A stretch of 32,000 nucleotides of DNA from Candidatus Saccharimonadota bacterium. Its GTDB lineage: Bacteria > Patescibacteriota > Saccharimonadia > Saccharimonadales > Saccharimonadaceae. The position numbers were made by a program, and so were the translations under genes. The stretch is from positions 510,001 through 542,000 of the forward strand of contig JBDSDX010000001.1 of the NCBI GenBank assembly GCA_039920285.1, given 5' to 3'. Below the pieces are notes generated by a model. That model was not told the origin of the DNA. It was given only the letters and a program-made list of their open reading frames with translations, and did not search any database. Below, one piece after another: positions 1,333 through 27,016 of this stretch. Position 1 is the stretch's first letter, and each line of letters opens with the position of its first letter.

Positions 1333-1417
1333 TGGTGCGCGCGAAAGGACTTGAACCTTCACGCCCGAAAGCACTAGCTCCTAAGGCTAGCGTGTCTACC
1401 AATTCCACCACGCGCGC
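1333..1417 (-). tRNA. tRNA-Leu (anticodon UAG), type II long variable arm, CCA encoded
   Basis: Reverse complement reads GCGCGCGTGGTGGAATTGGTAGACACGCTAGCCTTAGGAGCTAGTGCTTTCGGGCGTGAAGGTTCAAGTCCTTTCGCGCGCACCA. 7-bp acceptor stem, anticodon loop CTTAGGA, GGTTCAAGTCC T-arm. Confidence 0.9.
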
Positions 1418-1523: not shown

Positions 1524-3125
1524 ATGAACAAGATTGCAGTCTATCTAAATGAGCATTTACTGGGTGAAGTCAGTAGCTCTAAAGCCATGCGTCGACGCTA
1601 TAGTCGCGATGGGAGTGTCCTGACTATTACGCCTGAGATTATCGTATTTCCGCGTGTGACAAATGATATCCGAAAAGCAGCTCGTTTTGCGTGGCAACTC
1701 GCCGAAAAAGGACATGCGCTTCCTTTGACGGTTCGAGGCATGGGAACTGACCCAACAGGTGCAGCAATTGGAAAAGGGATGATCATTAGTACCAGTACCC
1801 ACCTCAATAAAATTATCCATGTGGCTATTAAAGAGCGTTTGATTCACGTCCAGCCAGGCGTTACCTTTGATCAACTTAACACCACATTGAAATGGAACGC
1901 GCTTGCCATTCCAAATACACCTGTCGATGGTCGTTATGGAACTGTTGGTGGCGCTATTGCGAGTAATGCACTAGGCTCAAGTGGTGAATTCGGCGCTGCG
2001 ATTGAAAAACTTGAAGTGGTTCTCGCAAATGGTGACCTTATGGAGACGTCTCGTATTAGCCGTCGTGACTTGAGTAAAAAGCTCGGTCTGCAAACTTTTG
2101 AAGGTGAAGTGTACCGTAAACTCGAAGGTCTTATTGAAGATAACGATGAATTGATTCAACAAATTGCCAAAGACCCTGTCCGTGACAATACTGGCTATAA
2201 GAATCTCTCGGCTGTAAAGGGAAAAGATGGTTCGTTTGACTTGACGCCACTCTTTATTGGGAGCCAAGGAACCTTAGGAATGATTTCAGAGATTGTTCTG
2301 AAAGCAGACTTTTATAGTGAAGACGTCACAATGGCTGTAGCGGTAGCCCAAAGCGATGAACTCGCTCGTGATATTGCTGATCGGCTGATTGAGTTGCAAC
2401 CGGCTGCGCTTGAAACCTACGACGGAGAGTTATTCCGACGTGCGAGTGCTGAAGGTGCACAATTTACACTTCTTGGTTCAACTGACCAGCTTGGAACGGT
2501 TATTTTCATTAAATTTAATGACTTTAGTGATCATGCCCAGGCGGTCAAATTGAAGAAAATGCGCAAAATGATGCAAAAACTCGGTGTCGGCATGGTTGAC
2601 TCAACTGATCATCAGATTGAAGAATTTGAAGCGGTGACTGGTGTTATTGAGTCACTTCGATTGATTGCGAATGATGATCAAACGGCGTTACCATTGGTTG
2701 ACGGCTCATTCATTCCAAATGAACGTCGTGAAGAGTTTGCCACTGCGGTAACAGAACTAGCTGCAAAACATCATACTCCATTGCCAATGAAACGAAACGT
2801 ACTAACGGGAACACTCTATAGTTTCCCAACCTTGAAACTTGATATCGTGAGCGACAAACAGAAACTCTTCCGTCTTTTGACAGATTATGCGGAACTTGTC
2901 GATCGTTGCAATGGAGCATTTGTCAGTGATGGTGCTGAAGGCCGATTGAAATCTAATGCTGCATGGACGATTCTCGATGATGCACATGCGCATTTGTATG
3001 AGCAACTGCGTGCTATCTTTGACCCATTCGGCACATTGAACCCAGGTGTAAAGCAGAAGAATGATATTCGCCACCTCGTTTCGTCGCTACGTTCGTCATA
3101 TGACGCGACCGATTTCGTCTCTTAA
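1524..3125 (+). CDS. FAD-binding oxidoreductase (GlcD / D-lactate dehydrogenase-like, FAD-linked oxidase family)
   Basis: 533 aa. N-terminal PCMH-type FAD-binding pattern (VRGMGTDPTGAAIG, GTVGGAIASNALG, FIGSQGTLGMISEIVLK) and a C-terminal FAD-linked oxidase-like region. GGGGA/GAGGA SD before the ATG. Confidence 0.75.
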   Translation: MNKIAVYLNEHLLGEVSSSKAMRRRYSRDGSVLTITPEIIVFPRVTNDIRKAARFAWQLAEKGHALPLTVRGMGTDPTGAAIGKGMIISTSTHLNKIIHVAIKERLIHVQPGVTFDQLNTTLKWNALAIPNTPVDGRYGTVGGAIASNALGSSGEFGAAIEKLEVVLANGDLMETSRISRRDLSKKLGLQTFEGEVYRKLEGLIEDNDELIQQIAKDPVRDNTGYKNLSAVKGKDGSFDLTPLFIGSQGTLGMISEIVLKADFYSEDVTMAVAVAQSDELARDIADRLIELQPAALETYDGELFRRASAEGAQFTLLGSTDQLGTVIFIKFNDFSDHAQAVKLKKMRKMMQKLGVGMVDSTDHQIEEFEAVTGVIESLRLIANDDQTALPLVDGSFIPNERREEFATAVTELAAKHHTPLPMKRNVLTGTLYSFPTLKLDIVSDKQKLFRLLTDYAELVDRCNGAFVSDGAEGRLKSNAAWTILDDAHAHLYEQLRAIFDPFGTLNPGVKQKNDIRHLVSSLRSSYDATDFVS

Positions 3126-3177: not shown

Positions 3178-3264
3178 GCGCGCGTGGCGGAATTGGTAGA
3201 CGCGCTAGCTTCAGGTGCTAGTGTCAGCAATGACGTGGAGGTTCAAGTCCTCTCGCGCGCACCA
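3178..3264 (+). tRNA. tRNA-Leu (anticodon CAG), type II long variable arm, CCA encoded
   Basis: GCGCGCGTGGCGGAATTGGTAGACGCGCTAGCTTCAGGTGCTAGTGTCAGCAATGACGTGGAGGTTCAAGTCCTCTCGCGCGCACCA; anticodon loop TTCAGGT. Confidence 0.9.
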
Positions 3265-6205: not shown

Positions 6206-6229
6206 GTCAATTTGCGGACGATTTCGACC

Positions 6230-6240
6230 TCTGTTATAAT
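6230..6240 (+). promoter_or_regulatory. extended -10 promoter TCTGTTATAAT for tig
   Basis: The TATAAT box ends 7 nt before ATG 6248. Confidence 0.55.
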
Positions 6241-6247
6241 TGGTCTA

Positions 6248-7552
6248 ATGGAAACTACACGAAAAAACCTATCTGACACAAAAGTATTACTGACAATTAC
6301 AGTGAGTAAAAAAGACCTCGTCGCGGCCGAGCAAGCTGCCCTTAAAACATTGAGTCGAACAGTGAAAGTTGCTGGCTTCCGCGCCGGTAAAGTACCTGCG
6401 GGCGTGGCTGCAAAACACGTCGATCCAGCAGCATTGCAAGACGAAAGTTTAAACAACGCTCTTAACAATGCAGTGACTGAGGCCTTCATTACAGAAAAGA
6501 TTCAACCACTTGACCGTCCTTCGGTTGAAGTACAAAAATTTGTTCCTGGTGAACTCCTTGAATTTACTGCTGAAGTTGAAATTGTTCCTAAGGTAAAACT
6601 TGGTGACTATAAACACCTTAAGGCGAAACAAGAACCTGCAAAGGTGACTGACATAGATGTCGAGGAAATCATTGAACGTATGCGCACGGGCTTTGCAACT
6701 CGTGAGGAAGTTGATCGTGGCGCAAAAGTTGGTGATGAAATCCTCATGGATTTTGTTGGTAAAAAAGAAGACGTTGCTTTTGACGGTGGAACAGCAAAAG
6801 ACTATACACTTGCGATTGGCTCTGGCCAATTTATCCCTGGTTTTGAAGAAGGTATCGTTGGTCACAAAGCTGGTGAAGAATTTGATATCGACCTTGATTT
6901 CCCAGCTGACTACCATGCGAAAGAACTCGCTGGTACGAAGGTTGTCTTCTCTGTCACACTAAAAAAGGTCCTCGAACCTAAACTACCTGAGGTCGATAAC
7001 GACTTTGCTGCTAAAGCGGGCCCATTTAAAACAGTCGCTGAACTAAAGGCTGACATCACACGCGAAATCAGTTCCCAAAAAGATCGTGAAGCCCACGAGA
7101 AGTATAAAGACGCACTCATTACGGAATTAGTTGAGAAGAGCACGGTTCCAACACCAGACATCCTGGTTGAAGACCACATGCGCTCAATCGAGCAAGACTT
7201 TGAACGAAACCTTGCGTACCAAGGTCTTAATCTGGATAGCTATTTTGTTACGAACAAATTTAAAGATGCAGATGACTGGCGTGATAAAGAAGTCCGTCCA
7301 ACGGCAACTCGTCGCGTTCAGGCTGGGCTTGTCTTGGCTGAATTAACCAGCGCCGAAAACGTTAAAGCTACTGATGCTGAAGTTGACGAACATGTCGAAG
7401 TTCATAAGAAGCAGTATGCTAATAACGAAGACGCTTTGAAGCAATTCGAAACAGCTGAAGTTCGCCGTGATATTGCCAATCATTTCTTGACTGAAAAAAC
7501 GATTGAACACTTGATCACACTCAATGGCGGCACCGCCAGCCACTCTCACTAG
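6248..7552 (+). CDS. tig: trigger factor
   Basis: N-terminal ribosome-binding GFRAGKVP motif, central FKBP-type PPIase region (GQFIPGFEEGIVGHKAGEEF), C-terminal arm domain. The TTG 6212 extension was rejected because the promoter lies inside it. Confidence 0.9.
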   Translation: METTRKNLSDTKVLLTITVSKKDLVAAEQAALKTLSRTVKVAGFRAGKVPAGVAAKHVDPAALQDESLNNALNNAVTEAFITEKIQPLDRPSVEVQKFVPGELLEFTAEVEIVPKVKLGDYKHLKAKQEPAKVTDIDVEEIIERMRTGFATREEVDRGAKVGDEILMDFVGKKEDVAFDGGTAKDYTLAIGSGQFIPGFEEGIVGHKAGEEFDIDLDFPADYHAKELAGTKVVFSVTLKKVLEPKLPEVDNDFAAKAGPFKTVAELKADITREISSQKDREAHEKYKDALITELVEKSTVPTPDILVEDHMRSIEQDFERNLAYQGLNLDSYFVTNKFKDADDWRDKEVRPTATRRVQAGLVLAELTSAENVKATDAEVDEHVEVHKKQYANNEDALKQFETAEVRRDIANHFLTEKTIEHLITLNGGTASHSH

Positions 7553-7572
7553 AGTAGGCACAAAGCAAATTG

Positions 7573-7600
7573 GCACTCACTTGCAACGAGTGCTAATTTT
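7573..7600 (+). terminator. weak hairpin terminator after tig
   Basis: GCACTC-acttgcaac-GAGTGC followed by TAATTTTAT. Confidence 0.35.
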
Positions 7601-7603
7601 ATA

Positions 7604-7609
7604 TACAAT
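7604..7609 (+). promoter_or_regulatory. -10 box TACAAT for clpP (leaderless geometry)
   Basis: The box ends 6 nt before ATG 7616; no SD. Confidence 0.4.
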
Positions 7610-7615
7610 AGATGT

Positions 7616-8212
7616 ATGAATAAGCCATCGAGTTACTTAGTACCAACAGTGATCGAAAAATCTTACGACGGGGAGCGGGCTTTTGATATCTACTCACGTC
7701 TCTTAAAAGAACGAATCATCTTTCTCAATGAAGACGTTAATGAACATACTGCGAGCCTGATCGTGGCACAACTTTTGTTCCTTGCCTACGAGGACCCGAA
7801 GAAAGACATCAAGCTGTATATCAATAGTCCTGGCGGGAGTGTCTATGACGGGCTTGCGATCTATGACACGATCCAGTTCATCTCACCGGATGTGCAGACG
7901 ATAGGTATTGGACTTCAGGCGAGTATGGGCGCTTTCTTACTTTCGAGTGGTACTAAAGGTAAGCGTTACGCGCTCCCAAACAGCCGTATCATGATTCACC
8001 AACCATCAAGTGGTACTCAAGGAAAGATTACTGACCAGGAGATCACTCTTAAAGAAGGAATTTTCCTTAAGCAACGACTCAATGAAATTCTTGCTAAGAA
8101 TACCGGACAGAAGTTATCTAAGATTGAAAAAGATGCTGATCGTGATTTCTGGATGAGCGCACAGGAGTCGAAAGACTACGGTCTTATTGATGACGTTATC
8201 GCCAAAGCATAG
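7616..8212 (+). CDS. clpP: ATP-dependent Clp protease proteolytic subunit
   Basis: 198 aa. [18 protein letters not shown], catalytic Ser in GLQASMGAF, His in IMIHQP, Asp in DRDFWMSA. Confidence 0.95.
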
Positions 8213-8248
8213 ACTTTTCGCTCGTATTATTGTATAATCTTCATCAAT

Positions 8249-8902
8249 ATGACAGATTTTGAAATTGGACGTATTGAACCCACAGAGCACAATGCGAAGC
8301 TGATCCAGTATATGTCTTTGGTTGACATGCAAATGGGCGGCCATCCTGATGCTTTGAAAGAAGCAAATCCTAATAACGCTGATAAAGTGAAGGCGCAAGC
8401 TGATAAGTTAGATCAGCATCCTGAGCGATATGCCGGAGCTTTCGCTGATGACGAACTTGTCGGATTCATTAAATATGATGATTGGCGCGTTGATCTTGAT
8501 ATGCCGTTTACGCACGGTACAGAACGCATAGATTCACTCATTCGTCGCTATGTACGACACGACTATAGCGTAAAAGGAAATCCTTTAGGAATTATGGGAC
8601 TAGTTTCGGATCCACGCATTGTCGATCGCTACCCTGAAGTAGCTGAGTCAGATATTGACGAGATGCTCGGGCAGTTAACCGATCAAGCAGTCGATGCAGC
8701 ACATTCGGGACGATATCCTCGTGAGATTCGTGTCCCGCATCACTATAATGACCCAGCGCGACGTGCAACCGCATCTCGTAGGTTTGAAACAACTGGGCAG
8801 TCTGCCGTTGTGTTCGGCATGAAACAAGAACTCTTTAGTCGCCCAGCAGTTGCCACAGAGTTAGAGCGATTTGCAGCTGCTCAAGACGAATTTGATAGTT
8901 AG
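8249..8902 (+). CDS. hypothetical protein (217 aa)
   Basis: Clean ORF occupying the position where clpX is often found. TGTATAAT (8231-8238) lies 10 nt upstream; no SD. No confident motif. Confidence 0.6.
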   Translation: MTDFEIGRIEPTEHNAKLIQYMSLVDMQMGGHPDALKEANPNNADKVKAQADKLDQHPERYAGAFADDELVGFIKYDDWRVDLDMPFTHGTERIDSLIRRYVRHDYSVKGNPLGIMGLVSDPRIVDRYPEVAESDIDEMLGQLTDQAVDAAHSGRYPREIRVPHHYNDPARRATASRRFETTGQSAVVFGMKQELFSRPAVATELERFAAAQDEFDS

Positions 8903-8954: not shown

Positions 8955-9105
8955 AGGTACTAAGAAGTAGTGTAGCCGTGGTTACTTGTGTCTTGAATGT
9001 GGTGTGGCAGTCACGCATAAACACAAGTGGGACGACCAGCGGTTAAGGGAATCTTCGGCGCCAAGAACCCCTATAAATCTAACTATGCGAGGACAATTCA
9101 GGCCT

Positions 9106-12100
9106 ATGGCAACTACCAAACGTGCGAACGCGAAGCGTATTTTCTTTACTAAAGATGATACTGCTCTCCCTCTACCAAACTTAATTGACCACCAGCGCTC
9201 AAGCTGGCAGGAATTCGTCGAAACCGGACTCGGTGAGATCTTTGCAGAACTCAACCCGATCGACGACTACACGGGACAGAAACTCGCGCTTCGCTTCGGC
9301 CAGTACGCTTTTCATGATCCTAAAAATAGCGAACAGTTCGCTAAAGAAAACAACGTAACCTTTGATGCGCCACTTCACGCTACTGTGGAACTGACCAACA
9401 AAGTAACCGGTGAAGTAAAAGAACAAGAGATCTACTTGGGTGATTACCCATGGATGACTGACCGTGGAACCTTTATCATTAATGGTACTGAGCGTGTCGT
9501 CGTCTCTCAATTGATTCGTAGTGCTGGTGTCTTCTTTACTGCAGACCGCCTCGCAACTCGTAACAACTATGGTGCTAAATTGATCCCAGGCCGTGGTGCA
9601 TGGCTCGAATTCGAGACTGCAACAAACGGTGCTATCTATGTCAAAATCGACCGTCGTCGCAAACTGCCTGTGACAACTCTTTTCCGTGCCCTTGGATACA
9701 ACAAGACATCGGAAATCAAAGCTCTCTTCGAAGGTGTTGACACCGGTGAAGTAAAATATATCGACGCAACTCTCGAAAAAGACCCAGCAAAGGGTACGAA
9801 CGAAGCACTCATCGAAGTCTACCGCCGCCTCCGTCCAGGTGACCTCGCAACAGTCGACAACGCTCGTTCAATGATCGAACGTATGTTCTTTGACTTCAAA
9901 CGATTCGACTACAGCCGTGTTGGTCGTTACAAGCTCAACCAACGCCTCGGTATCGAAGTGCCAAACACGACTGAAAACCGTGTCTTCATGGTCAGTGACC
10001 TCGAAGCAATCGTTCGCGAAATCATTCGCTTGAACAACACCCAAGAACTTGCTGATGACATCGACGCCTTGTCAAACCGTCGCGTTAAACTTGTTGGTGA
10101 ACTCGTTGCACGTCAATTCCGTGTTGGTATGCTTCGTATGCAACGTAACGCCATGGACCGTATGTCTATGAGCGACATTGAAAACGTTTCTCCCTCACAA
10201 CTTATTAACGCTCGTCCTGTCGTGGCCGCTGTTCGTGAATTCTTCGCGAGTTCACAACTTTCACAACTTATGGACGAAACCAACCCACTGGCTGAACTCG
10301 CTCACAAGCGTCGCCTTAGCTCAATGGGTCCTGGTGGACTTTCTCGTGAACGTGCTGGATTCGACGTTCGTGACGCCCACCCAACTCACTACGGACGTCT
10401 TTGTGCCGTTGAGACACCTGAAGGTGCCAACATTGGACTGGTATTGAACCTTGCGGCCTATGCTCGTATTAACGAGTACGGTTTCATCGAAACTCCTTAC
10501 CTTAAGGTTGTAAAGGGTAAAGTTACCGAAGAAGTTGTTTACCTTGATGCTTCCGAAGAAGCGGTTGAAGTGATTGCTGATGCTGGTGCTGAACTCACTA
10601 AAGATGGTAAGTTTGCTGACGAACGTGTCAGTGCACGTAACGGACTTCTCCCTGAACAAGTTGACTCATCAGAAGTGACCTACATGGATGCTGCTCACAA
10701 GCAGATCCTTGGTTCAACTGCCGCTCTTGTGCCATTTGTTGAAAAGAACCGTGTCGACCGTTCATTGATGGCCTCATCAATGCAGAAGCAAGCTGTTCCA
10801 CTCTTGCACCCTGAAGCTCCTGTCGTGGGAACTGGTATCGAAGGCGAAATCGCTCGCAACACCAGCCAACTCGTTGAAGCTGAAGGTGCTGGTGAAGTTG
10901 TCCGTGCTGACGGTGAAGAAGTTCATGTCAAATACGCTGACGGCGTAAAGATCTACAAGCTGATTCACTTTGCGAAATCTAACGACGACCGTTCGATTAA
11001 CCAAAAAGTTCGTGTCGAACGTGGTGAAAAAGTTAAAAAGGGTGACATTCTTATCGAAGGTGCCTCAGTTGACCAAGGTGAAATTGCGCTCGGTCGCGAC
11101 CTCCTCGTTGCTTTCATGCCATGGAATGGCTACAACATGGACGACGCAATCGTTTTGAGCCAACGTCTTATTACTGATGACACACTGACAAGCGTGAACA
11201 TCAAAGACTACACTGTTGAAGTTCGTGAAACAAAGCTCGGTCCTGAAATTGTCACTCGGGACATTCCAAATGTGAGCGAAGAATCACTTCGTCACCTTGA
11301 CGAAAACGGTATCGTTACCCTTGGTTCTGAAGTGAAATCTGGCGACGTTCTCGTCGGTAAGATTACACCAAAGGGTGAACAAGAACTCAGCTCAGAAGAA
11401 CGACTTCTTCGTGCGATCTTCGGTGAAAAAGCCAAAGACGTCCGCGATACTTCACAGCGCATGAATAATGCAGGTGGCGGTAAAGTCGTCGGTATCAAGA
11501 TCTTCTCACGTGAGAATGGTCATGAACTCAAAGCTGGTGTGCTTATGCAAATCCAAATCTTCGTTGCTCAATTCCGTAAGATCTCAGTTGGTGACAAACT
11601 TGCTGGACGTCACGGAAACAAGGGTGTCGTTGCGCGTATTCTTCCAGTCGAGGACATGCCGTACATGGAAGATGGAACAGCAGTTGATGTTGTCTTGAAC
11701 CCACTTGGTGTCCCAAGTCGTATGAACATCGGACAACTGTTCGAAACTCACCTTGGAATGGCTGCTCGTGCACTTGGATACAAAGTTGCAACACCTCCAT
11801 TTAATGGTGTCACTGATGAGACTATCTCTGAAGAACTCGTGAAAGCCGGCTTTAACCGTGATGGTAAGAGTCAACTGTTTGACGGCCGTACTGGTGATGC
11901 CTTTGAAGAGCGCACAACTGTCGGTGTCATGCACATGCTGAAGCTTCACCACATGGTGAGCGACAAGATTCACGCCCGTTCTACTGGACCATACACAATG
12001 GTCACGCAGCAACCACTTGGTGGTAAAGCGCAAAACGGTGGTCAACGATTCGGTGAGATGGAAGTCTGGGCACTTGAAGCATATGGTGCTGCCTCAACAC

Positions 12101-12462
12101 TTCAGGAAATGTTGACAATTAAGTCTGACGACGTCTATGGACGTGCGAAAGCTTACGAATCAATCATTAAGAACGAGCCAATTGTTGGTCCGAAACTTCC
12201 AGAAAGCTTTAACGTTCTCGTTAAAGAACTTCAAGGTCTCGGTCTCCGTGTTGATCTTCTTGATGAATCTGAAGATGCTATTGTCGACGCTGAACAGGTA
12301 ATTGGGAGTGTCATCAATGGCGAACCAGTTCCTATGAGCGATGTGATGGAAGCTGATGAAGTAGAAGTAATTCTCGACGAAGCTGATGAACTTGGCGACC
12401 TCGATGATGGAACCACCATCCAGGATATTGATGAAGTAGAAGAAATTAAGGAGGAGGCGTAA
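9106..12462 (+). CDS. rpoB: DNA-directed RNA polymerase subunit beta
   Basis: Canonical N-terminus MATTKR..LPNLIDHQRSSW starts at ATG 9106. Conserved GRLCAVETPEGANIG, NPLGVPSRMNIGQ, GGQRFGEMEVWALEAYGA. 64-aa acidic C-terminal extension. Confidence 0.97.
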   Translation: MATTKRANAKRIFFTKDDTALPLPNLIDHQRSSWQEFVETGLGEIFAELNPIDDYTGQKLALRFGQYAFHDPKNSEQFAKENNVTFDAPLHATVELTNKVTGEVKEQEIYLGDYPWMTDRGTFIINGTERVVVSQLIRSAGVFFTADRLATRNNYGAKLIPGRGAWLEFETATNGAIYVKIDRRRKLPVTTLFRALGYNKTSEIKALFEGVDTGEVKYIDATLEKDPAKGTNEALIEVYRRLRPGDLATVDNARSMIERMFFDFKRFDYSRVGRYKLNQRLGIEVPNTTENRVFMVSDLEAIVREIIRLNNTQELADDIDALSNRRVKLVGELVARQFRVGMLRMQRNAMDRMSMSDIENVSPSQLINARPVVAAVREFFASSQLSQLMDETNPLAELAHKRRLSSMGPGGLSRERAGFDVRDAHPTHYGRLCAVETPEGANIGLVLNLAAYARINEYGFIETPYLKVVKGKVTEEVVYLDASEEAVEVIADAGAELTKDGKFADERVSARNGLLPEQVDSSEVTYMDAAHKQILGSTAALVPFVEKNRVDRSLMASSMQKQAVPLLHPEAPVVGTGIEGEIARNTSQLVEAEGAGEVVRADGEEVHVKYADGVKIYKLIHFAKSNDDRSINQKVRVERGEKVKKGDILIEGASVDQGEIALGRDLLVAFMPWNGYNMDDAIVLSQRLITDDTLTSVNIKDYTVEVRETKLGPEIVTRDIPNVSEESLRHLDENGIVTLGSEVKSGDVLVGKITPKGEQELSSEERLLRAIFGEKAKDVRDTSQRMNNAGGGKVVGIKIFSRENGHELKAGVLMQIQIFVAQFRKISVGDKLAGRHGNKGVVARILPVEDMPYMEDGTAVDVVLNPLGVPSRMNIGQLFETHLGMAARALGYKVATPPFNGVTDETISEELVKAGFNRDGKSQLFDGRTGDAFEERTTVGVMHMLKLHHMVSDKIHARSTGPYTMVTQQPLGGKAQNGGQRFGEMEVWALEAYGAASTLQEMLTIKSDDVYGRAKAYESIIKNEPIVGPKLPESFNVLVKELQGLGLRVDLLDESEDAIVDAEQVIGSVINGEPVPMSDVMEADEVEVILDEADELGDLDDGTTIQDIDEVEEIKEEA

Positions 12463-12463: not shown

Positions 12464-15400
12464 ATGTCGCGCGTTGTAGCAAACAATGGTATTGCCGACT
12501 TTGACGCGATTCGTCTGTCAGTCGCAAGCTCTGATGACATCATGAAATGGAGTCACGGAGAAGTTACAAAACCTGAAACGATTAATTATCGTACCCAGAA
12601 ACCTGAGCGTGATGGTCTGTTCTGTGAACGAATTTTCGGTCCAGTCAAAGACATCAACCCACACGATAACAAGCTCAAGGGAGTTCGCTCTCGTGAAGCT
12701 GCTGTCGATAAGAATGGTGACCTCGTTACCAAGTCTATCGTTCGTCGTGAACGCATGGGTCACATTCAACTTGCAAGTCCTGTTGCGCACATCTGGTTTA
12801 TGCGTGGGACACCATCAGCAATGTCACTATTGCTTGGTATCACTGTTCGTAACCTCGAACGTATCGCGTACTTTGCAACCTACGTTGTCTTGAAATCTGA
12901 CGAAGAAAGCCGTGACAAGTTCTTGGCTGACCTCGAAGCAGAGACCGAAGCTGGTCGTGCTGCAATCAAGATGCGTTACGAAAAAGAAGCTGAAGCAGAA
13001 ACTGCTGATGTTAAATCACTTGCTGAATCAATGACCCGTGAAACTGAAGAGTTGAATGAAAGCTACTTGGTCAAGAAAGCTCAACTGGATTCACTGGTAA
13101 AGAACTCACTCATGAGTGAAGTTGATTACCGAAACATGCCAGAAGAGTACCAAGACTTGATCGAAGTTGGTATGGGTGGACTTGCACTGAAAGCACTTCT
13201 TGATGGTATTAACTTGAGCGAACTTATCGCCCAACTGACTGAAGAAGTCGCTGGTGCGAAGGGTCAACGTGAAAAGAAACTACTCAAGCGCCTGAAGGTA
13301 CTTGAAGGTATGCAATCTGCCGGTATCAAGCCTGCGAGTTTGACGCTGACTGTTCTTCCTGTCATTCCACCGGACCTTCGTCCAATGGTGCAATTGACTG
13401 GTGGCCGTTTTGCAACCTCAGACCTAAACGACCTTTACCGTCGTGTCATCAACCGTAACAACCGTCTCAAGAAGTTGATCGAACTCAATGCGCCTGAAGT
13501 CATTCGCCGCAACGAAATGCGTATGCTTCAAGAAGCTGTTGATGCATTGATCGACAACTCAGCTGCTCGTGGTGGCCGTGCGGTTAACGCAACAGGTGGC
13601 CGTCGCCGTCTGAAGTCTATCTCTGACATGCTCAAGGGTAAACAGGGTCGTTTCCGCCAAAACCTTCTTGGTAAGCGTGTTGACTACTCTGGACGTTCAG
13701 TTATTGTGGTTGGCCCTAAGCTTAAGATTTCAGAATGTGGTCTGCCAAAGCAGATGGCACTCGAACTCTTTAAGCCGTTTGTTATTCACTGGTTGATTGC
13801 TGGTGAGTACGCTCACAACATTCGTTCTGCAACTCGTTTGATCGAAGCTGGCGAAGCAGTTGTATGGGATGCTCTCGACTCTGTTATTGAAGGTAAGTAC
13901 GTTCTTTTGAACCGTGCACCATCACTTCACCGTCTTTCAATTCAGGCTTTCATGCCTAAATTGGTTGAAGGTAAAGCAATTCAGCTTCACCCACTTGTCG
14001 CAAACGGTTTCAACGCCGACTACGACGGTGACCAGATGGCAGTTCACTTGCCACTTTCAAAGCAAGCACAACAAGAAGCACGCGAGCTCATGAGCGCAAC
14101 TGCTAACCTGTTGAAGCCTGCCGATGGTGCGCCTGTACTCTCTATTAGCCAGGACGTCGTATTGGGTAACTACTACCTCACATACGCAAAACCAAGTGCA
14201 CAAGTTGACACGATCAAATCGTACAGCTCTGTCTACGAAGCTGAAATGGCATATGAGAACAAGGTAATTCAACTCCAAACGCCAATTCGTGTTTTTGCAC
14301 GTGGCGAAATCCGTTCAACAACACTCGGTCGCGTTTTCTTCAACGAAATCCTACCGGCTGACTTCCCCTACGACAACAACGTACAAAATAAGAAGCAACT
14401 CAAGAAAGTCTTGAACCAAATCTTCGAAAAGTATGGTGCTGAAGGGACTGCTCAGACAGCTGACCGCATCAAGGGACTTGCGTTCCGTTTTGCGACTGTC
14501 TCTGCTGTATCAACAGGTAAAGATGACTACGTCGAATTCGAAGAGACGAAGGAATTCATCGCAGAGGGTGACGCAAAGTCAGCTCTCATTAGCGAACAAT
14601 TCAACCAAGGTCTCATCACCGAAGAAGAACGATATAACCTTACCGTTTCAACCTGGCGTGCAGTGGTGCGTCGTGTTGGTGAATTCTTGGCTGAAAAGCT
14701 CAAGGACATGGATACCAGTGTCTCCGTCATGGTGAACTCTGGTGCTCGTGGTGACATCTCAAACGTTCAGCTTGCAAGCGCTATGATCGGTATCATGGTT
14801 GACGCAACGAACCGTGAGATCGAGCTTCCTATCCGAAGTAACTACAAGCACGGTCTGTCTTCACTTGAGCAATTCGTGGCCACCCGTGGTTCACGTAAGG
14901 GTCTGATTGACACCGCTCTTAAGACTGCTGACTCAGGGTATTTGACTCGTCGTCTCGTTGACGTCTCACAAGATGTCTTCACCGTTGAAGACACCCCTGG
15001 TGATGACGAAGGATTCTCAATCTACCGTGCTGAAACTGAAGAGACAATGATTGACTTCGGTAACCGTCTTTACGGACGATTTGCTGCAGAAGATGTTGCT
15101 GGTCACGTTAACGCTGGTGAGTTGATTAATCGTGAGACTGCAAAGGCGATCGAAGCTGATTCAGAAGTCACGGAAGTTAAAATCCGTTCAGTCCTTTCAA
15201 CCAAGAACCTCCGTGGTGTTCCTCAATCAAGCTATGGTATCGATATGTCGACCAATATGCTTGTTGCGAAAGCACAACCAGTTGGTGTCATCGCTGCTCA
15301 GTCTGTCGGTGAGCCTGGTACCCAGTTGACATTGAAGACCTTCCACGCAAGTGGTGTGGCCGAAAGTGACATCACCCAGGGTCTGCCTCGTGTTGAAGAG

Positions 15401-16303
15401 TTGTTCGAAGCACGTTCTCCAAAGGGACAAGCGTTCGTTACTGAAGTAACCGGACTCGTCGAACAGTGGGAAGATGGCAAGAAGTATATCGTTCAAGTGA
15501 CCCCAGAAGCTGGACACATTGAAACGATTGCTCTCGAAGGCCGAACTGCATCTGTAAAGAATGGTGCTAACGTCAAGGTCGGAGATGTTCTCGCCAGTGG
15601 TGAGAGTGAATCGAAGCCTTTGATCGCTCCATTCGATGGTATCGTTGAAGTAACTCCTGAACACTTAGTCCTTGCGGCAAACGCAAGCTCACCAGTCCGT
15701 TACGAAATCCCGGGTAACTACCAACTCACCGTTAACTCTGGTGACACGGTGCAAGCCGGTGATCGATTGACTGGCGGATCACTCAACCTACACGATTTGA
15801 TGCGCCTCAAGGGCATCGAAGCAACACAGCGTTACATTATCAACGCCGTGCTCCGTATCTACGCCGCACAGGGTCAAGACGTTGCTGACAAGCACCTCGA
15901 GATCATCGTTCGACAAATGTTTAGCCGTGTCCAAGTTGAAGATCCAGGTGATAGCGCCTTTGTGACTGGCGACATCGTTTCAAAAGCCTCTGTTATGGAA
16001 GCAATTGACGTGTTGGCCGCTGAGAAGAAAGAGACGATCGCGTTTACGCAGCTCCTTCTTGGAATCACTAAGGTCTCAATCTGGTCAGACAGCTTCCTAT
16101 CAGCCGCATCGTTCCAAGATACCACTCGTGTCCTGATCAACGCTGCAGTGAGTGGTCGTATCGACCGCCTACACGGCTTGAAGGAAAACGTGATCATCGG
16201 TCGTAAGATCCCTGTTGGTACAGGTGTCACGAGTGCAACTGCGCTCGACACTACTGACGAGGTGACTGCCGAGATCGCTGAAGACCTCGAACTCGCTGCT
16301 TAA
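12464..16303 (+). CDS. rpoC: DNA-directed RNA polymerase subunit beta-prime
   Basis: 1279 aa. AGGAGGAGG SD in the rpoB tail. Catalytic NADYDGDQMAVH, RFATSDLNDLYRRVINRNNRL, SGYLTRRLVDV, GEPGTQLTLKTFH. Confidence 0.97.
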   Translation: MSRVVANNGIADFDAIRLSVASSDDIMKWSHGEVTKPETINYRTQKPERDGLFCERIFGPVKDINPHDNKLKGVRSREAAVDKNGDLVTKSIVRRERMGHIQLASPVAHIWFMRGTPSAMSLLLGITVRNLERIAYFATYVVLKSDEESRDKFLADLEAETEAGRAAIKMRYEKEAEAETADVKSLAESMTRETEELNESYLVKKAQLDSLVKNSLMSEVDYRNMPEEYQDLIEVGMGGLALKALLDGINLSELIAQLTEEVAGAKGQREKKLLKRLKVLEGMQSAGIKPASLTLTVLPVIPPDLRPMVQLTGGRFATSDLNDLYRRVINRNNRLKKLIELNAPEVIRRNEMRMLQEAVDALIDNSAARGGRAVNATGGRRRLKSISDMLKGKQGRFRQNLLGKRVDYSGRSVIVVGPKLKISECGLPKQMALELFKPFVIHWLIAGEYAHNIRSATRLIEAGEAVVWDALDSVIEGKYVLLNRAPSLHRLSIQAFMPKLVEGKAIQLHPLVANGFNADYDGDQMAVHLPLSKQAQQEARELMSATANLLKPADGAPVLSISQDVVLGNYYLTYAKPSAQVDTIKSYSSVYEAEMAYENKVIQLQTPIRVFARGEIRSTTLGRVFFNEILPADFPYDNNVQNKKQLKKVLNQIFEKYGAEGTAQTADRIKGLAFRFATVSAVSTGKDDYVEFEETKEFIAEGDAKSALISEQFNQGLITEEERYNLTVSTWRAVVRRVGEFLAEKLKDMDTSVSVMVNSGARGDISNVQLASAMIGIMVDATNREIELPIRSNYKHGLSSLEQFVATRGSRKGLIDTALKTADSGYLTRRLVDVSQDVFTVEDTPGDDEGFSIYRAETEETMIDFGNRLYGRFAAEDVAGHVNAGELINRETAKAIEADSEVTEVKIRSVLSTKNLRGVPQSSYGIDMSTNMLVAKAQPVGVIAAQSVGEPGTQLTLKTFHASGVAESDITQGLPRVEELFEARSPKGQAFVTEVTGLVEQWEDGKKYIVQVTPEAGHIETIALEGRTASVKNGANVKVGDVLASGESESKPLIAPFDGIVEVTPEHLVLAANASSPVRYEIPGNYQLTVNSGDTVQAGDRLTGGSLNLHDLMRLKGIEATQRYIINAVLRIYAAQGQDVADKHLEIIVRQMFSRVQVEDPGDSAFVTGDIVSKASVMEAIDVLAAEKKETIAFTQLLLGITKVSIWSDSFLSAASFQDTTRVLINAAVSGRIDRLHGLKENVIIGRKIPVGTGVTSATALDTTDEVTAEIAEDLELAA

Positions 16304-16390: not shown

Positions 16391-16398
16391 GGTTGACT

Positions 16399-17082
16399 AT
16401 GCAAGCTGGTGAAAAACTAAAAGAATTCGTGAGAGAATTCGATCCCTTTGATGAGAGACAGACTCCAACTGACGATCAACTCATCGATATCATTGAACTC
16501 TTCCTTGAGCTAAACAAAGGATTACTCTTGAGGTTCAGCTCGGATGTTCGCATGATGCCTGTATCAGATGAGCACGGCACTGCAACAGCGTTCGAAGTTT
16601 CACTCAAAGTACCCGCACGTGATGGGTCATATCTTCATGTTGTAGTGTTCGGCCACAATAGTGACGATAGCTTGGTTGATACAAATATTTCTGTCATCGA
16701 ACACCTACCTGGCGGCAATTATCAAACCGGACATCTCTACTCATTTTCATACGGAAATGTTGTCCGTTCCGATTTGGGTCTCGATCAAACGGACGACCCT
16801 GACGAGCAAAGGACTCACTTTAGCCTGTTTACTCTTCATGAGTCTCGAGACTTTCTTCGAGAACTCGAACAGAGTGAAGACCCGGAAGAAGTGAGAGTTG
16901 CATTAGAAACGAGAGCACAGCTCGACGATGACGAGAAAAACCTTGATCTTGCAGAACAGATGGGATACAACGTTCAGCCTGTTGATAAAGAAGAAATCGA
17001 AAAATTAGTACTGTTGTTATTTGATGCTGAATCTTTCCCACCCTCGATGTTTCCACATGCAGGTAATGACAGCATTTACTAA
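16399..17082 (+). CDS. hypothetical acidic protein (227 aa)
   Basis: Clean ORF between rpoC and rpsL; ATG 16399 is preferred over TTG 16393. D/E-rich; no recognised motif. Confidence 0.6.
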   Translation: MQAGEKLKEFVREFDPFDERQTPTDDQLIDIIELFLELNKGLLLRFSSDVRMMPVSDEHGTATAFEVSLKVPARDGSYLHVVVFGHNSDDSLVDTNISVIEHLPGGNYQTGHLYSFSYGNVVRSDLGLDQTDDPDEQRTHFSLFTLHESRDFLRELEQSEDPEEVRVALETRAQLDDDEKNLDLAEQMGYNVQPVDKEEIEKLVLLLFDAESFPPSMFPHAGNDSIY

Positions 17083-18232: not shown

Positions 18233-18316
18233 AAAGATAAATGGGAGCAAAAACAAACATGACTGACATTTTCGATTTCTGCTTTAACGTTGGCCGAAAG
18301 GTCATCGGGGACTAGT

Positions 18317-19057
18317 ATGTCTGGAGAATGGATTGAACCGAACTTTGCCGGACCAACACCATTTCTCCCCCCTGAAGCAGTGAGACTTCACGATCTTCGT
18401 AAGGACGGACGCAAGCCAACGCCTGTTGATACGCGTACTAAGCTCGTTGATAGGCGAGCACTTATGATTATGGCGAGGGAGAGCGTTGTTCCTGGCTACG
18501 ACTGGCGCGCACCTGAGGTAAAGAAAAAGACCTCCAACCACCATCTTCACTGGCCTCACTTCCAAGATGCCAATAGCTTTCGTAATTCAGGGTCACGTAG
18601 AACAAACATCGCACCGATTGCACACAATTGGATTCACGAGTTGACAGTACCACCAGATGCGGTTGGGGAAGATGTCGAACATGATTATACGGAGGCGCAG
18701 GAGTATGCGATTGAACTAAGAACAATTGCCAACCATCCATTATTCCTGGGTCGTGAAACAGTACGAATTCATAAAGAAGTCTCTGCGGCTTTTCAAAACG
18801 AATACTTCGTTCTCTCTAAACAAGAAGTACGTCAAGATATAAAGCTCGATTTGGCATTTGCGTTCGATAGTTTTGCTGCTGTATTTGAAAGAGCACGTCA
18901 GGCCCCTATAGAATTCCAAGTTATTGATTATGAGGCAAGGCAACTTCGGGGAGTCCATGACATGATGAGTATTGCTCGTGAAATTGGCGCGACAATTCGA
19001 CGCGAGGCAGAATTGGACCAAAAGATTCTCGATGGAGCTGTCGATCTTGCTGCATAA
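18317..19057 (+). CDS. hypothetical protein with HH-x20-N-x5-HxxxH signature (possible His-Me finger / HNH-like nuclease)
   Basis: ATG 18317 with a GGGGA SD is preferred over TTG 18290. NHHLHWP...RRTNIAPIAHNWIHE is encoded at 18536-18640. Helical C-terminal half. Confidence 0.6.
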   Translation: MSGEWIEPNFAGPTPFLPPEAVRLHDLRKDGRKPTPVDTRTKLVDRRALMIMARESVVPGYDWRAPEVKKKTSNHHLHWPHFQDANSFRNSGSRRTNIAPIAHNWIHELTVPPDAVGEDVEHDYTEAQEYAIELRTIANHPLFLGRETVRIHKEVSAAFQNEYFVLSKQEVRQDIKLDLAFAFDSFAAVFERARQAPIEFQVIDYEARQLRGVHDMMSIAREIGATIRREAELDQKILDGAVDLAA

Positions 19058-19059
19058 GG

Positions 19060-19068
19060 TGTTATAAT
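19060..19068 (+). promoter_or_regulatory. extended -10 promoter TGTTATAAT
   Basis: Starts 3 nt after the stop of the 18317-19057 gene and lies 31 nt before ATG 19100. Confidence 0.45.
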
Positions 19069-19099
19069 TCCTAAATACTAATTTTCCCGAGAGACTGTC

Positions 19100-20119
19100 A
19101 TGGAATTCACCAAAGTAGACCGACTGTTCACCCCACTTCGCCCCGAAATAGCTGCTAAAATCCAAGCGATATCTGAAAAGCTGACGGACATCTATGATGA
19201 TGACCAAGCAAAGACTCTTCTTGTTGAACTGAATCATGAACTTACTAAACATAAACTAGTGGGTGATACAGTCCAAGTGAGTTCTGCCGATATGGTGTGG
19301 GGTAGTTATGGACTTGATGGAAACTTTATTCCGGTTCTAGATGTGGCGTTACTAGAGAAGCATATTATAGCGGGGACATTCTTGGGTGTCGGCGAACTCG
19401 ATATTGACGGCCTCCGGACGGTGGTCTACAACCTACAGGTAGAAATCGACGATGAAGCAACGAGTTCTTTTGTCATCAGTGCGCCAATTGAAACATCTCA
19501 TCTGGCAGTTGAGGTTGAGATACCGGCTTCAGTGCAGACAGATAACGAGCTTGCTCAACACTTTCAGGTATTGGCGGAAATTGAAGATCCTGCGTTCAGA
19601 GAACTCATAAAAGCGTTTATGGATGTACTTGATGATAACGACATGCTTAATGCATCAATGTTGAGACATCTCGGTGTTCTCGTAACTGAGATGCTTGCCC
19701 ATAGCGAAGTACAAGACAATGATCGACGCCAAGACGCGATAAGTAATATTCTTGCTGAAATACTGAATGATGACGGAATATATACCATTGTTGGACAGGA
19801 ATTTATGATTGATAGACAGTCTCCCAAAGGAACATTGTTTCTTAAGTCGTTCGAAGCGACAGGTGGTGTAGCAGGTGTTTCGCTTGTCAATGATTATACG
19901 ACCAACGAGCTAAGTATTGATACTTTCAAATCGACCTTTCAACCGGCAGCTATATTCCAGGACGGAAGTAATCGACGCTACACTATTCCATTAAAGTATA
20001 TTACGACGTTTGATATGCTTGAAGGTCCTGATATGTCACCTGATCCCGATGGCTGTCGGGCAAGTATCGGTCGATTCCTTATGCAAAACCCTCAAGTATT
20101 GAAAGCAATGAAATGGTAG
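19100..20119 (+). CDS. hypothetical acidic protein (339 aa)
   Basis: Clean ORF, GAGAGA SD-like sequence upstream. 7-nt overlap (ATGGTAG) with the next ORF. Confidence 0.65.
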   Translation: MEFTKVDRLFTPLRPEIAAKIQAISEKLTDIYDDDQAKTLLVELNHELTKHKLVGDTVQVSSADMVWGSYGLDGNFIPVLDVALLEKHIIAGTFLGVGELDIDGLRTVVYNLQVEIDDEATSSFVISAPIETSHLAVEVEIPASVQTDNELAQHFQVLAEIEDPAFRELIKAFMDVLDDNDMLNASMLRHLGVLVTEMLAHSEVQDNDRRQDAISNILAEILNDDGIYTIVGQEFMIDRQSPKGTLFLKSFEATGGVAGVSLVNDYTTNELSIDTFKSTFQPAAIFQDGSNRRYTIPLKYITTFDMLEGPDMSPDPDGCRASIGRFLMQNPQVLKAMKW

Positions 20120-21195
20120 ACTCTGATTCATTCCCTCCAACTCCTGAAAAAGGTCAACCGGTCGAACTCCAAGCCGCATTCACCTCAGAAAGAGAGTTTG
20201 AAGACTACTTTAAGACAGTTCAGTATCGCATCGCTCAGGTGAGAGGTACGGTTTTTACCGATGAAATCGAAGCTGAAAGAGCACTCGACGAACACGTCGA
20301 TTCGATCAATGATGAAATATTTGATCATCCTGAATGGTTTAAAATCCCTGTAGTTATAACTGGTGAGGGTATATCTGAACCAAACGCTGATTCAAGTATC
20401 TCGAATCTTACTGATGGCCGTAGGGCAATTGTGATAGCCTTTGACCCTGAACAAGGCTACGCTGCAACCCCGAGCTTCGAAACAAAAACAGGATATATAG
20501 AAGGGGTGTACGGCCAAGTCATTAGTCTTTTTGATGACAATGAGATTCCGACAGGTCAGCATGCGGTGAATGTCCGCTATATCGTCCGAGCAAAGTATCC
20601 AGAAACGATAGATATAACATTGGGTGGTCCAAATATCGCTGCTCTTCGAGTTGAGGCGTATCCTGCTTATTTTGCTCACATCGATATGGTTGAAATCGAA
20701 ACTGAAGCACTGAATAAACAGAGACAAGCTGAGGTATTGACGAATGACATGGTCCTGAGGGGTATTACGGGAAGTGTCTTTCAGCATAAACTTACAAAAG
20801 TTGAAGAGTCATTGAATAACGACACTCCATTTCAATTTATGACGTTTGAAAATATCGAAGATTTCCGTTCAGTTGGGACACTTGGCGCTGTGATTGCAAG
20901 AAAAGGTCCAGACTATGCTCGAACAGTGAAGGAAGCAATGCTAAACGCACTTCGCGTTGGACGTCCACTTAAAGTAGATGGAACATGTCTCCTTCCAAGA
21001 ATTGGTGACGATCCTATTTTAGTGACGGCAGAGTTAAAAGGCGAGATATACGACATTATGCTTCCTGAGTCGCCAGAAGATACAATCGCACCAACACTCG
21101 TCTTGAGCTGCCTTATAGAAACAGGAGAAGGCCAGCCGCCAAAAGAGGTATTGTACTTCTTTGATTTCGAGCAGATTCACGCTCTGAAGTTCTAG
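20113..21195 (+). CDS. hypothetical protein (360 aa)
   Basis: Clean ORF translationally coupled to 19100-20119. Stop lies 15 nt before the fusA promoter motif. Confidence 0.65.
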   Translation: MVDSDSFPPTPEKGQPVELQAAFTSEREFEDYFKTVQYRIAQVRGTVFTDEIEAERALDEHVDSINDEIFDHPEWFKIPVVITGEGISEPNADSSISNLTDGRRAIVIAFDPEQGYAATPSFETKTGYIEGVYGQVISLFDDNEIPTGQHAVNVRYIVRAKYPETIDITLGGPNIAALRVEAYPAYFAHIDMVEIETEALNKQRQAEVLTNDMVLRGITGSVFQHKLTKVEESLNNDTPFQFMTFENIEDFRSVGTLGAVIARKGPDYARTVKEAMLNALRVGRPLKVDGTCLLPRIGDDPILVTAELKGEIYDIMLPESPEDTIAPTLVLSCLIETGEGQPPKEVLYFFDFEQIHALKF

Positions 21196-23390: not shown

Positions 23391-23420
23391 CCGAGGCATC
23401 AGTGCCTCGGTTTTTGTTTA
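23391..23420 (+). terminator. rho-independent terminator after fusA
   Basis: CCGAGGCA-tcag-TGCCTCGG followed by TTTTTGTTT. Confidence 0.8.
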
Positions 23421-23443
23421 AGAGCAATATAATCTGCGTTTTC

Positions 23444-23449
23444 TACAAT
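23444..23449 (+). promoter_or_regulatory. -10 box TACAAT (leaderless geometry)
   Basis: The box ends 6 nt before ATG 23456. Confidence 0.4.
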
Positions 23450-23455
23450 ATAGGT

Positions 23456-24097
23456 ATGAAAGCGATGAGTTATCTGAGGCCACGAGAAAAGTTGCAACAA
23501 AAAGGCGCAACTGTACTTACGAACGCTGAATTACTCCAGGTGATGATAGGGAGCGGCAATGCGCAGGCAAGCGTCAGCCGTATAGCGAAGCGTTCTATGA
23601 AGCAGTTATTGCGATATGGCAATGAGATTACGTATGATCAGTTGCACGAAGTAGCCGGGTTGGGTCCAGCTCGTGCCTGTCAGATACTAGCGGGTTTTGA
23701 GTTAGCAAGTCGCTATCCGGTTCGTCGGCAACAAATCGTGATTGATACGAGAGAAAAGGTACTCGCGTTAGTGGCGGATATCCGTAGTGCAACATTAGAC
23801 AGGTTGGATTACATTACGATTGACGGTGCAAAACGACTGATCGCAAAGAGGTCAGTAGCAATTGTAGAAACAGCACATCCTTCGACCATGCTGCGACAGA
23901 TATTTTCTGACGTCGTTACCGATAAAGCAGTGAATCTTTCGGTTGTGATCGGCTCATCAGATCGAGAACTTGAACCCTCTATGTTTGATTTAAGTCTTGG
24001 TCACGACTTAAAGATAATGGCTCAGTTGTTCAATGTCGGTATTCAGGACTACGTAATCATTAACAATAGTGGTCATAGAACCTTAGAGCTATCATGA
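23456..24097 (+). CDS. RadC-like protein with degenerate JAB/MPN (JAMM) active site
   Basis: N-terminal RadC pattern LTNAELLQVMIGSG and HhH EVAGLGPARACQILAGFEL. In the C-terminal JAB region the canonical HNHPSG is IGSSDR, PRE is LRQ and DH is DY. Confidence 0.7.
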   Translation: MKAMSYLRPREKLQQKGATVLTNAELLQVMIGSGNAQASVSRIAKRSMKQLLRYGNEITYDQLHEVAGLGPARACQILAGFELASRYPVRRQQIVIDTREKVLALVADIRSATLDRLDYITIDGAKRLIAKRSVAIVETAHPSTMLRQIFSDVVTDKAVNLSVVIGSSDRELEPSMFDLSLGHDLKIMAQLFNVGIQDYVIINNSGHRTLELS

Positions 24098-24597
24098 CAG
24101 AGTGTATTGAGGAGCTTGTCTATAGTTGGTACGAACGGTCACAGATTGACTACAGTGACCTATACGCTCGACTGTATATTTCGTATAATGCATGGTTTCG
24201 TAAAGTTACTCGAACGAGCAATGATAGTCAGGCTTTAGAACTGCTCAAGCGGCGCTTCATCATCTGGGATGATTATATACATAACCGGACAATGCGAGAT
24301 CTAACAGAGGTGATATCACGTATTTGCCGCCACACTGAAACAAATGTGAAAGATACAAGCGATTGGAGAGGACTCATCTCATTTTGGTATCAGGTACGCT
24401 GTGATCTATTTCACGGCACTATAAAGCCAGATAACGAAATTATTCGACTCGCGTATGAATCATTGGTTATATTTATGGATGAAATCGTTTCACGCATGCA
24501 TCAGTCATTTCCGTCTGGATACTTTTTCGCCCACGATCTATGGAGTGTCGATATGATGCGTGTTTTACCGAGTGAAACGCTTTACATAGCGACCTAA
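24094..24597 (+). CDS. hypothetical protein with Rx4H motif (HEPN-like, possible RNase)
   Basis: ATGA overlap with the RadC-like gene. [11 protein letters not shown] (R102-H107, nt 24397-24414). Helical. Stop lies 2 nt before the tuf promoter motif. Confidence 0.6.
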
Positions 24598-25976: not shown

Positions 25977-26393
25977 TTAGGGGAGACTCATGAGTCTCAC
26001 GGTGGCAGTTCCGTTATGGTAGAACTCTGTCGTGTGCTCAGAAGTTGCTCGAATGCTTTGAGCAAATGATACTTCAACCGTGAAAGTGAGGCCACCTACT
26101 TGGTTTTTCAGTTTCTCGGTGAGTTGACGAGCGATAGCTACGCTGCCAGGTCGTTCTTCCCATTCTGGATTGATACAGGCGGTTGCGCTGACGAGGTTGT
26201 CGGCTGAGCGATAACTGATACGGAGCCCTCGAATGAGTGCACCCGCAAGCTTATTAACGCTCATGCCGCGTTGTTTCTCTTCGAGCTTGAGAGCTCGAGT
26301 GACTTCGTCAGGCGTTGGATCTGGAAGATCGATTGGTGCGGTGACAGGTCGTCGCGCTTTGTGGCGCAACAACATATCTCTCTCATTGAACAT
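25977..26393 (-). CDS. hypothetical protein (138 aa), possible N-terminal ribbon-helix-helix
   Basis: AAGAAAGG SD 5 nt before ATG 26393. The segment PVTAPIDLP..EVTRALKLEEKQRGMSVNKLAGALIRGL resembles the RHH strand-helix-helix pattern (weak). Confidence 0.5.
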   Translation of the reverse strand: MFNERDMLLRHKARRPVTAPIDLPDPTPDEVTRALKLEEKQRGMSVNKLAGALIRGLRISYRSADNLVSATACINPEWEERPGSVAIARQLTEKLKNQVGGLTFTVEVSFAQSIRATSEHTTEFYHNGTATVRLMSLP

Positions 26394-26487
26394 TGGTACC
26401 TTTCTTGGTGCGAGCGACCCACTTGATCGCTATGTCTGATGATATATTATGCCAAATTAATGTCGATATGTCAATGATTATCGTAGA

Positions 26488-26516
26488 TTTACAAACCATG
26501 TTATATCTGTTATTAT
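26488..26516 (+). promoter_or_regulatory. promoter TTTACA-17-TATTAT (with TCTGT upstream) for rpsJ
   Basis: TCTGTTATTAT at 26506-26516 is a variant of the recurrent motif. ~90-nt leader. Confidence 0.5.
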
Positions 26517-26613
26517 CACTAAGTATATTAATCCATACCGAGAACTCGGCCAGACGTAATAACAGCGATTCGAGCAGAGGTTACGGTATACAACCAAGAA
26601 AGGTTTCTTCCAA

Positions 26614-26940: not shown

Positions 26941-26954
26941 TTTCATCTGGATAT

Positions 26955-26981
26955 AAAATAGCCTCGAAAGGGGCTATTTTT
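26955..26981 (+). terminator. rho-independent terminator after rpsJ
   Basis: AAAATAGCCTC-gaaa-GGGGCTATTTTT. Confidence 0.75.
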
Positions 26982-26987
26982 GTATCG

Positions 26988-27016
26988 TTGTGAAGACAAA
27001 GCGTATGCATTATACT
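26988..27016 (+). promoter_or_regulatory. candidate promoter TTGTGA-17-TATACT for the pilin gene
   Basis: Hexamers with a 17-nt spacer, 23 nt before ATG 27040. Confidence 0.45.

Follow-up and report, generated by a model that had tools for sequence, protein, structure and literature searches.

The β′ subunit of RNA polymerase encoded in a 32,000-nucleotide stretch of DNA from a Candidatus Saccharimonadota bacterium (contig JBDSDX010000001.1, positions 510,001 to 542,000; hereafter the window, whose numbering is used throughout) has lost all eight cysteine ligands of the two structural zinc sites that are regarded as invariable in the bacterial enzyme. No Cys4 zinc site is left in this protein. 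The first site, the N-terminal zinc-binding domain (ZBD), is nevertheless still recognizable as a collinear segment of 29 residues. As judged from sequence comparisons, the cysteine-free ZBD is a trait of the whole Saccharibacteria lineage and not peculiar to the window genome, and the core enzyme with which these bacteria transcribe is probably free of zinc.

Ligand loss at both zinc sites of β′

In canonical bacterial β′ the ZBD (residues ~68-96 of the E. coli protein) binds zinc through C70, C72, C85 and C88, and its 29 residues are located between the motifs FGPxKD and VRRERMGH. The same position of window β′, between FGPVKD and VRRERMGH, is occupied by the 29 residues INPHDNKLKGVRSREAAVDKNGDLVTKSI (I64-I92).

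12653..12739, + strand: cysteine-free ZBD homologue, I64-I92, 29 amino acids, assigned from ungapped alignments, ligand columns and clade conservation
12659-12661 (P66), 12665-12667 (D68), 12704-12706 (V81) and 12713-12715 (N84), + strand: codons equivalent to those of the four ZBD ligands

Direct translation and gapless alignments confirm that the segment has the same length as in E. coli, as stated in the original prediction, which was made from the DNA sequence without database searches. The span given there, 12644-12739, has the correct end, whereas its start also takes in V61-D63; the segment proper begins at 12653. The ZBD stretch aligns without gaps both with E. coli β′ (BLASTP) and with β′ chains from the PDB (phmmer), and a MAFFT alignment with the E. 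coli reference places P66, D68, V81 and N84 in the columns of C70, C72, C85 and C88. The proposed replacement of all four ligands (C70->P, C72->D, C85->V, C88->N) is thus borne out. The reference itself was checked against NC_000913.3; cysteine is present at 8/8 ligand positions, and three differing positions are irrelevant. Although homologous to the ZBD, the window segment does not contain the Cys4 ligand set (CxC...CxxC).

A shift in register that merely conceals the ligands had been named as a finding that would overturn this reading. Window β′ has only two cysteines, which are listed here with their frequencies in 123 full-length β′ sequences of the Saccharibacteria clade, a set that was chosen without regard to the ZBD sequence.

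12623..12625, + strand: C54, equivalent of the non-ligand residue C58 of E. coli; cysteine in 121/123 clade members
13736..13738, + strand: C425, equivalent of the non-ligand residue C366 of E. coli; cysteine in 123/123 clade members

Since the sole two cysteines match non-ligand positions, a register shift that hides the ligands is impossible.

The second zinc site of β′, which is formed by C814, C888, C895 and C898 in E. coli and whose loss was overlooked in the original prediction, is also devoid of cysteine in window β′. Its surroundings can still be aligned (GYLTRRLVDVSQD..., ...YG...GVIAAQSVGEPGTQLT), but the ligands are replaced by P, T, P and S (P845, T913, P920 and S923).

14984..15013, + strand: second zinc site, element 1, VEDTPGDDEG, residues 841-850; P845 (14996-14998) is in the C814 column
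15182..15238, + strand: second zinc site, element 2, IRSVLSTKNLRGVPQSSYG, residues 907-925; T913, P920 and S923 are in the C888, C895 and C898 columns

In the alignment with PDB β′ chains, VEDTPGDDEG is found opposite 'retdcgtdrg', and STKNLRGVPQSSYG opposite 'tcntphgvckrcyg' of a B. subtilis-type β′. None of the 123 clade sequences has more than one cysteine in the four site-2 columns; it occurs in the C888 column in 46/123 and in the C898 column in 2/123. The lone cysteine of the C888 column looks like a vestige of the ancestral second site. Window β′, with T913 (15200-15202) at this position, lacks even this single residue.

Loss of the second site alone, i.e. with four cysteines (CCCC) at the first site, was found in 102/119 relatives of a protein from the database search described below, P0240, as well as in P0194, P0203 and P0240 themselves. 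Typically, the site-2 columns of the P0240 relatives (P0428-P0546) read SDSS or TDSS. Where named, these proteins belong to Actinomycetota or Acidimicrobiia, and some are encoded on contigs of 1.6-5.9 Mb. The loss of the second site thus recurs independently in bacteria, apparently also in lineages with multi-megabase genomes, and P0194 and P0203 are further independent cases.

Integrity of the gene and distribution of the trait

The window gene is rpoC of a member of the Saccharibacteria (TM7, class Saccharimonadia), and it is functional.

12464..16303, + strand: rpoC, RNA polymerase β′, 1279 amino acids, intact open reading frame (ORF), two cysteines only
14012..14032, + strand: catalytic Mg-binding motif NADYDGD, N517-D523, intact by translation
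8986..12462, + strand: rpoB, β subunit, with Pfam Rpb2 domains, directly upstream of rpoC

All five Pfam Rpb1 domains (PF04997, PF00623, PF04983, PF05000 and PF04998) are present in window β′ above the gathering scores (E 1.7e-70 to 3e-06), and bacterial β′ chains from the PDB match it at E ~1e-60 (phmmer). NADYDGD corresponds to the Mg-binding motif NADFDGD, and its residues A518, D519, D521, G522 and D523 are invariant in 144 clade sequences. A single nucleotide separates the rpoB stop codon from the ATG of rpoC; translation of rpoB probably starts at one of two Met codons, 9085 or 9106. The order rpoB-rpoC is the same in a relative with a 1.25-Mb sequence (L123). Just before the catalytic motif, the equivalent of E. 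coli C454 is cysteine in 121/123 clade members and alanine in the window (A513, 14000-14002). With two cysteines, window β′ has the fewest of any β′ examined.

A 29-residue, cysteine-free ZBD was found in 120/120 of the most similar database proteins (70-95% identity). Of these, 119 fit a regular expression for the segment (29 amino acids, no cysteine), and the last one was judged by eye to have the same state; the named members are Candidatus Saccharibacteria, Saccharimonadales or Microsaccharimonas. An exhaustive HMMER search covered 1.84 billion cluster representatives (50%-identity clusters), of which the best 150 clusters were analysed. Among these, a cysteine-free ZBD occurs only in P0121, P0123, P0124, P0128 and two fragments, which have the signature INPxx...AVDxxG..VT in common. 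When P0128, the most divergent member, was used as query, 118 further full-length proteins were retrieved, assigned to Saccharibacteria or Saccharimonadales where named. The multiple alignment with scored ligand columns that had been suggested as a check gives a clear result: site 1 has 0/4 cysteines in 123/123 full-length clade β′ and CCCC in 72/72 full-length representatives outside the clade (best 150 clusters). The nearest relatives that retain the cysteines include Candidatus Peribacteria and Dehalococcoidia. Given the 72/72 outside sequences with CCCC and the vestigial cysteine in the C888 column, the loss of the ligands appears to be a derived state. Outside the Saccharibacteria clade no loss of the ZBD ligands was seen among the best 150 clusters, which are those most similar to the query.

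On the DNA level, at least 120 GTDB species representatives match a degenerate pattern for the cysteine-free motif, and all of the matches listed are genuine rpoC genes with a cysteine-free ZBD. The rpoBC region of the window shares no more than 80% DNA identity with any of the at least 120 GTDB loci listed. Taken across NCBI, ENA, JGI, Logan and GTDB, more than 360 independent sequences share the same cysteine-free 29-residue segment. A second rpoC was found neither in the window nor in the loci examined (flanks up to 10 kb). Three GTDB loci with the labels Dongiaceae, Candidatus Dormiibacterota and Candidatus Nomurabacteria (L044, L071 and L080) contain a typical Saccharibacteria rpoC with a cysteine-free ZBD; they are probably mis-binned or mislabelled in public records.

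These data also bear on the possibility that the finding is an artefact, caused by faulty sequencing or assembly, by pseudogenisation or by a shifted register that hides the cysteines. Nothing was found in favour of this possibility. The ORF of 1279 codons is intact and encodes all Pfam domains and the catalytic motif, the alignments are gapless, and the two cysteines present are both at known non-ligand positions. Because more than 360 independent relatives share the cysteine-free segment, pseudogenisation is excluded, and so is a sequencing error, which according to the original prediction might have come to light by resequencing. An artefact of any kind is extremely improbable.

Constraint on the segment and alternative readings

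Within the clade the cysteine-free segment is highly conserved. In the 123 β′ sequences the ZBD has a mean pairwise column identity of 0.855, as against 0.756 in residues 1-420 and 0.692 over the full protein. N65, R77, A80, D82, G85 and V88 are invariant (123/123); P66, D68, K72, G73, R75, K83, T89 and I92 are kept in at least 121/123, and the length of the segment is constant in every one of the more than 360 sequences. In the GTDB loci, the ratio of nonsynonymous to synonymous differences (pN/pS) over the 29 ZBD codons is 0.15 at a near-saturated pS of 0.82, with 0.12 for the flanks. This ratio is partly biased, as the GTDB DNA pattern itself demands residues 80-89 and 94-99, and the protein-based identity is the cleaner measure; both pN/pS and the unbiased set of 123 proteins give the same picture.

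Of the 29 positions of the clade consensus INPHDAKYKGVRSREAAVDKNGE[IL]VTKSI, 9 are identical and 4 conservative relative to the canonical consensus, as counted by hand, position by position, from the listed sequences, and the flanks are highly conserved. Kept in the clade are the equivalents of the canonical K74, K76, K79, R81, K87, G89, V92 and T93, including the G-x-x-V-T of the second knuckle. The clade differs from the canonical ZBD in the ligand columns, which read P, D, V/I and a variable residue, and in the arginine at the tip, which is replaced by glycine; a thiolate zinc site is impossible. Since the length is constant, the identity exceeds that of the whole protein (0.855 versus 0.692) and basic residues are kept along with G89, V92 and T93, the data point to a domain that has been retained under selection and has no Cys4 site. 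The expectation voiced in the original prediction, that either the fold is kept by other means or the function has changed, fits these observations.

We predicted structures with AlphaFold2 for residues 1-420 (121-sequence alignment) and 1-620 (144 sequences), in both cases from clade-only alignments. The predicted local distance difference test (pLDDT) values of the ZBD are 46-60. Over residues 61-100, which are in this same range, both models contain short strands at 80-81 and 87-88 only. Low values are also seen at residues 1-60 and 91-97 of window β′. As these N-terminal segments of β′ need the β subunit to fold, the low pLDDT is not specific to the ZBD.

The low confidence over the segment in both runs would be in line with a collapse of the ribbon. 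According to this alternative, residues 64-92 form a flexible basic loop with a shifted or narrowed role, for example because Rho, RapA, put-like RNAs or other canonical ZBD partners have been lost, and the conservation reflects a new interaction. The same could be read from the residue equivalent to E. coli R77, which contacts putRNA as a wedge residue (PMC9378689) and is glycine in 121/123 clade members. A collapsed loop is disfavoured by the absence of length variation in more than 360 sequences and by the retention of the knuckle glycine G85 and of V88/T89 of the second hairpin. In addition, both models place short strands at 80-81 and 87-88, and low pLDDT is shared with residues 1-60 and 91-97. 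We regard the collapse of the ribbon as unlikely.

The conservation pattern could also point to a ZBD that still binds metal, albeit through a new non-thiolate site made up of H67, D68 and D82 and possibly N65 or E78. D68 stands in one of the columns once held by a ligand, H67 and D82 are adjacent to such columns, and all candidate residues are frequent among the 123 sequences (D68 in 122, D82 in 123, N65 in 123, H67 in 114 and E78 in 110). Yet two of the ligand columns hold residues that are unable to coordinate metal, Pro in 121/123 and Val/Ile in 123/123. H67 is replaced by Phe in 7 and by Asn in 2 sequences, and positions 67-68 read F-S in P0128 and N-N in P0013. Moreover, N, K, H, A, R, E, Q and S all occur in the fourth column, and such freedom is unusual for an obligate metal site. 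We consider such a site quite unlikely.

In our view, it is likely that the segment derives from the zinc ribbon, has become independent of zinc and continues to act at the RNA exit channel, within a lineage-wide cysteine economy. In passages of PMC9378689 and other papers the canonical ZBD is described as docking nascent RNA, upstream DNA, Rho, RapA, phage Q proteins and putRNA. We propose that the Cys4 ligands of the two structural β′ zinc sites were replaced in an ancestor of the Saccharibacteria lineage. The N-terminal ZBD was not deleted; it persists as a cysteine-free module of the same length under strong purifying selection. Its ribbon or hairpin shape would most probably be held metal-free by hydrophobic packing (P66, V81, A79/A80 and V88), with further stability most probably gained from N65, D68 and D82 through polar or charged contacts. 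The basic residues K70, K72, R75, R77 and K83 would probably still face the nascent RNA and the upstream DNA at the RNA exit channel. To our knowledge, bacterial α, β and ω carry no zinc sites. As β′ has lost both of its sites, the Saccharibacteria core enzyme would be without structural zinc.

Several points weigh against this proposal. With a pLDDT of 46-60 in both AlphaFold2 runs, fold retention is without modelling support, and the exchange of the tip arginine for glycine in 121/123 clade members means that some ZBD contacts have changed. A metal site without thiolates is conceivable in principle, given the strong conservation of H67, D68, E78 and D82. The outside survey comprised the 150 most query-similar clusters, so that the ZBD loss may not be unique to this clade among bacteria. 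Finally, the argument from cysteine economy is drawn from ~30 genes around rpoBC and not from whole proteomes.

Cysteine economy of the region

In the 27 main ORFs of the window, 24 of 9286 residues are cysteine (0.26%). For 11 genes with orthologues in both the window and E. coli K-12 (rpoB, rpoC, rpsL, rpsG, fusA, tufA, rplC, rplD, rplW, rplB and rpsC), the counts are 34/5166 in E. coli (0.66%) versus 6/4817 in the window (0.12%), a difference of ~5-fold. A contrast in the same direction is seen when ORFs from 119 Saccharibacteria loci, with an average of 0.35% cysteine, are set against a 36-kb E. coli region (1.18%). RpoC proteins of the clade have 2-12 cysteines (median 6), and those of the other representatives 10-29. 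Within ±10 kb of rpoC in the 1.25-Mb relative L123, no zinc-ribbon ribosomal protein was found. Mutational bias was set aside as a cause of the cysteine loss, because TGY codons are not disfavoured at 46% GC.

The local depletion is consistent with general cysteine avoidance in the lineage, and the loss of the β′ zinc ligands would be in keeping with such avoidance in host-dependent bacteria. A wider proposal, in which a core RNA polymerase without structural zinc is one sign that Cys4 zinc sites and cysteine have been eliminated throughout the proteome, seems possible to us but somewhat doubtful.

Relation to known zinc-free systems

In 2001, Makarova et al. ('Two C or not two C') reportedly described zinc-independent 'C-minus' versions of zinc-ribbon ribosomal proteins, and Markov et al. 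are said to have found in 1999 that β′ depends on its second zinc site to fold and assemble. Another cysteine-free counterpart of a zinc protein is DksA2, a paralogue of DksA (PMC11672702). The C-minus ribosomal proteins and DksA2 resemble the case described here in that a Cys4 site in a protein of the nucleic-acid machinery is changed to non-ligand residues while the length, and presumably the fold, is kept. In window β′, too, a segment that is homologous to and collinear with a Cys4 ribbon has had every ligand exchanged. C-minus systems are, however, usually paralogue pairs in which the C-minus copy is induced under zinc starvation (Zur regulon). In Saccharibacteria, by contrast, the change affects the essential β′ gene and is fixed across the class, with no cysteine-containing copy in the window or in the loci examined.

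We found no prior report of a zinc-free β′ in Saccharibacteria or other bacteria of the candidate phyla radiation in the open-access full-text literature. Nor was an earlier case of such a zinc-independent form found there for RNA polymerase. Loss of the second site alone recurs in Acidimicrobiia-like Actinomycetota.

If the core RNA polymerase of Saccharibacteria is indeed free of structural zinc, they would be the first known cellular lineage to transcribe in this way. A large and partly cultivable lineage, which includes human oral TM7, does without both sites, which shows that nature does not strictly require either of them. An assumed obligate zinc sink would be removed, which bears on the cysteine and zinc economy of ultra-small host-dependent bacteria; these epibionts might have an exceptionally low need for zinc and cysteine, and their RNA polymerase might be immune to oxidant damage by zinc release. 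Regulators and inhibitors that bind the ZBD may act differently in Saccharibacteria. The 29-residue clade sequence could represent a natural recipe for a metal-free ZBD, i.e. a selected sequence solution that might be swapped into model RNA polymerases.

Gene neighbourhood

The normally compact string rpoC-rpsL-rpsG-fusA-tuf-rpsJ is broken in the window by ORFs (16393-17082, 18290-21195, 23402-24597 and 25977-27711), most of them without Pfam matches. One interrupting ORF is located in the rpoC–rpsL interval, and three lie in the rpsG–fusA interval. The fusA–tuf interval contains a RadC-like gene and an unknown ORF, and the tuf–rplC interval encodes a type IV pilin-like protein (N_methyl plus He_PIG). 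L123 has other insertions at the same junctions, among them an FtsK-like gene after rpsG.

Upstream of rpoB (6212-8902) the window has tig and clpP, not rplKAJL. The clpP gene is not followed by clpX; in its place there is an ORF of 217 amino acids without a Pfam match (8249-8902). In L123 (1-6279), tig and clpP are likewise located upstream of rpoB, with extra ORFs in between. Near the start of the window, two tRNA-Leu genes with the anticodons TAG and CAG, at 1333-1417 (- strand) and 3178-3264 (+ strand), flank a gene for an FAD-linked oxidase (1524-3125).

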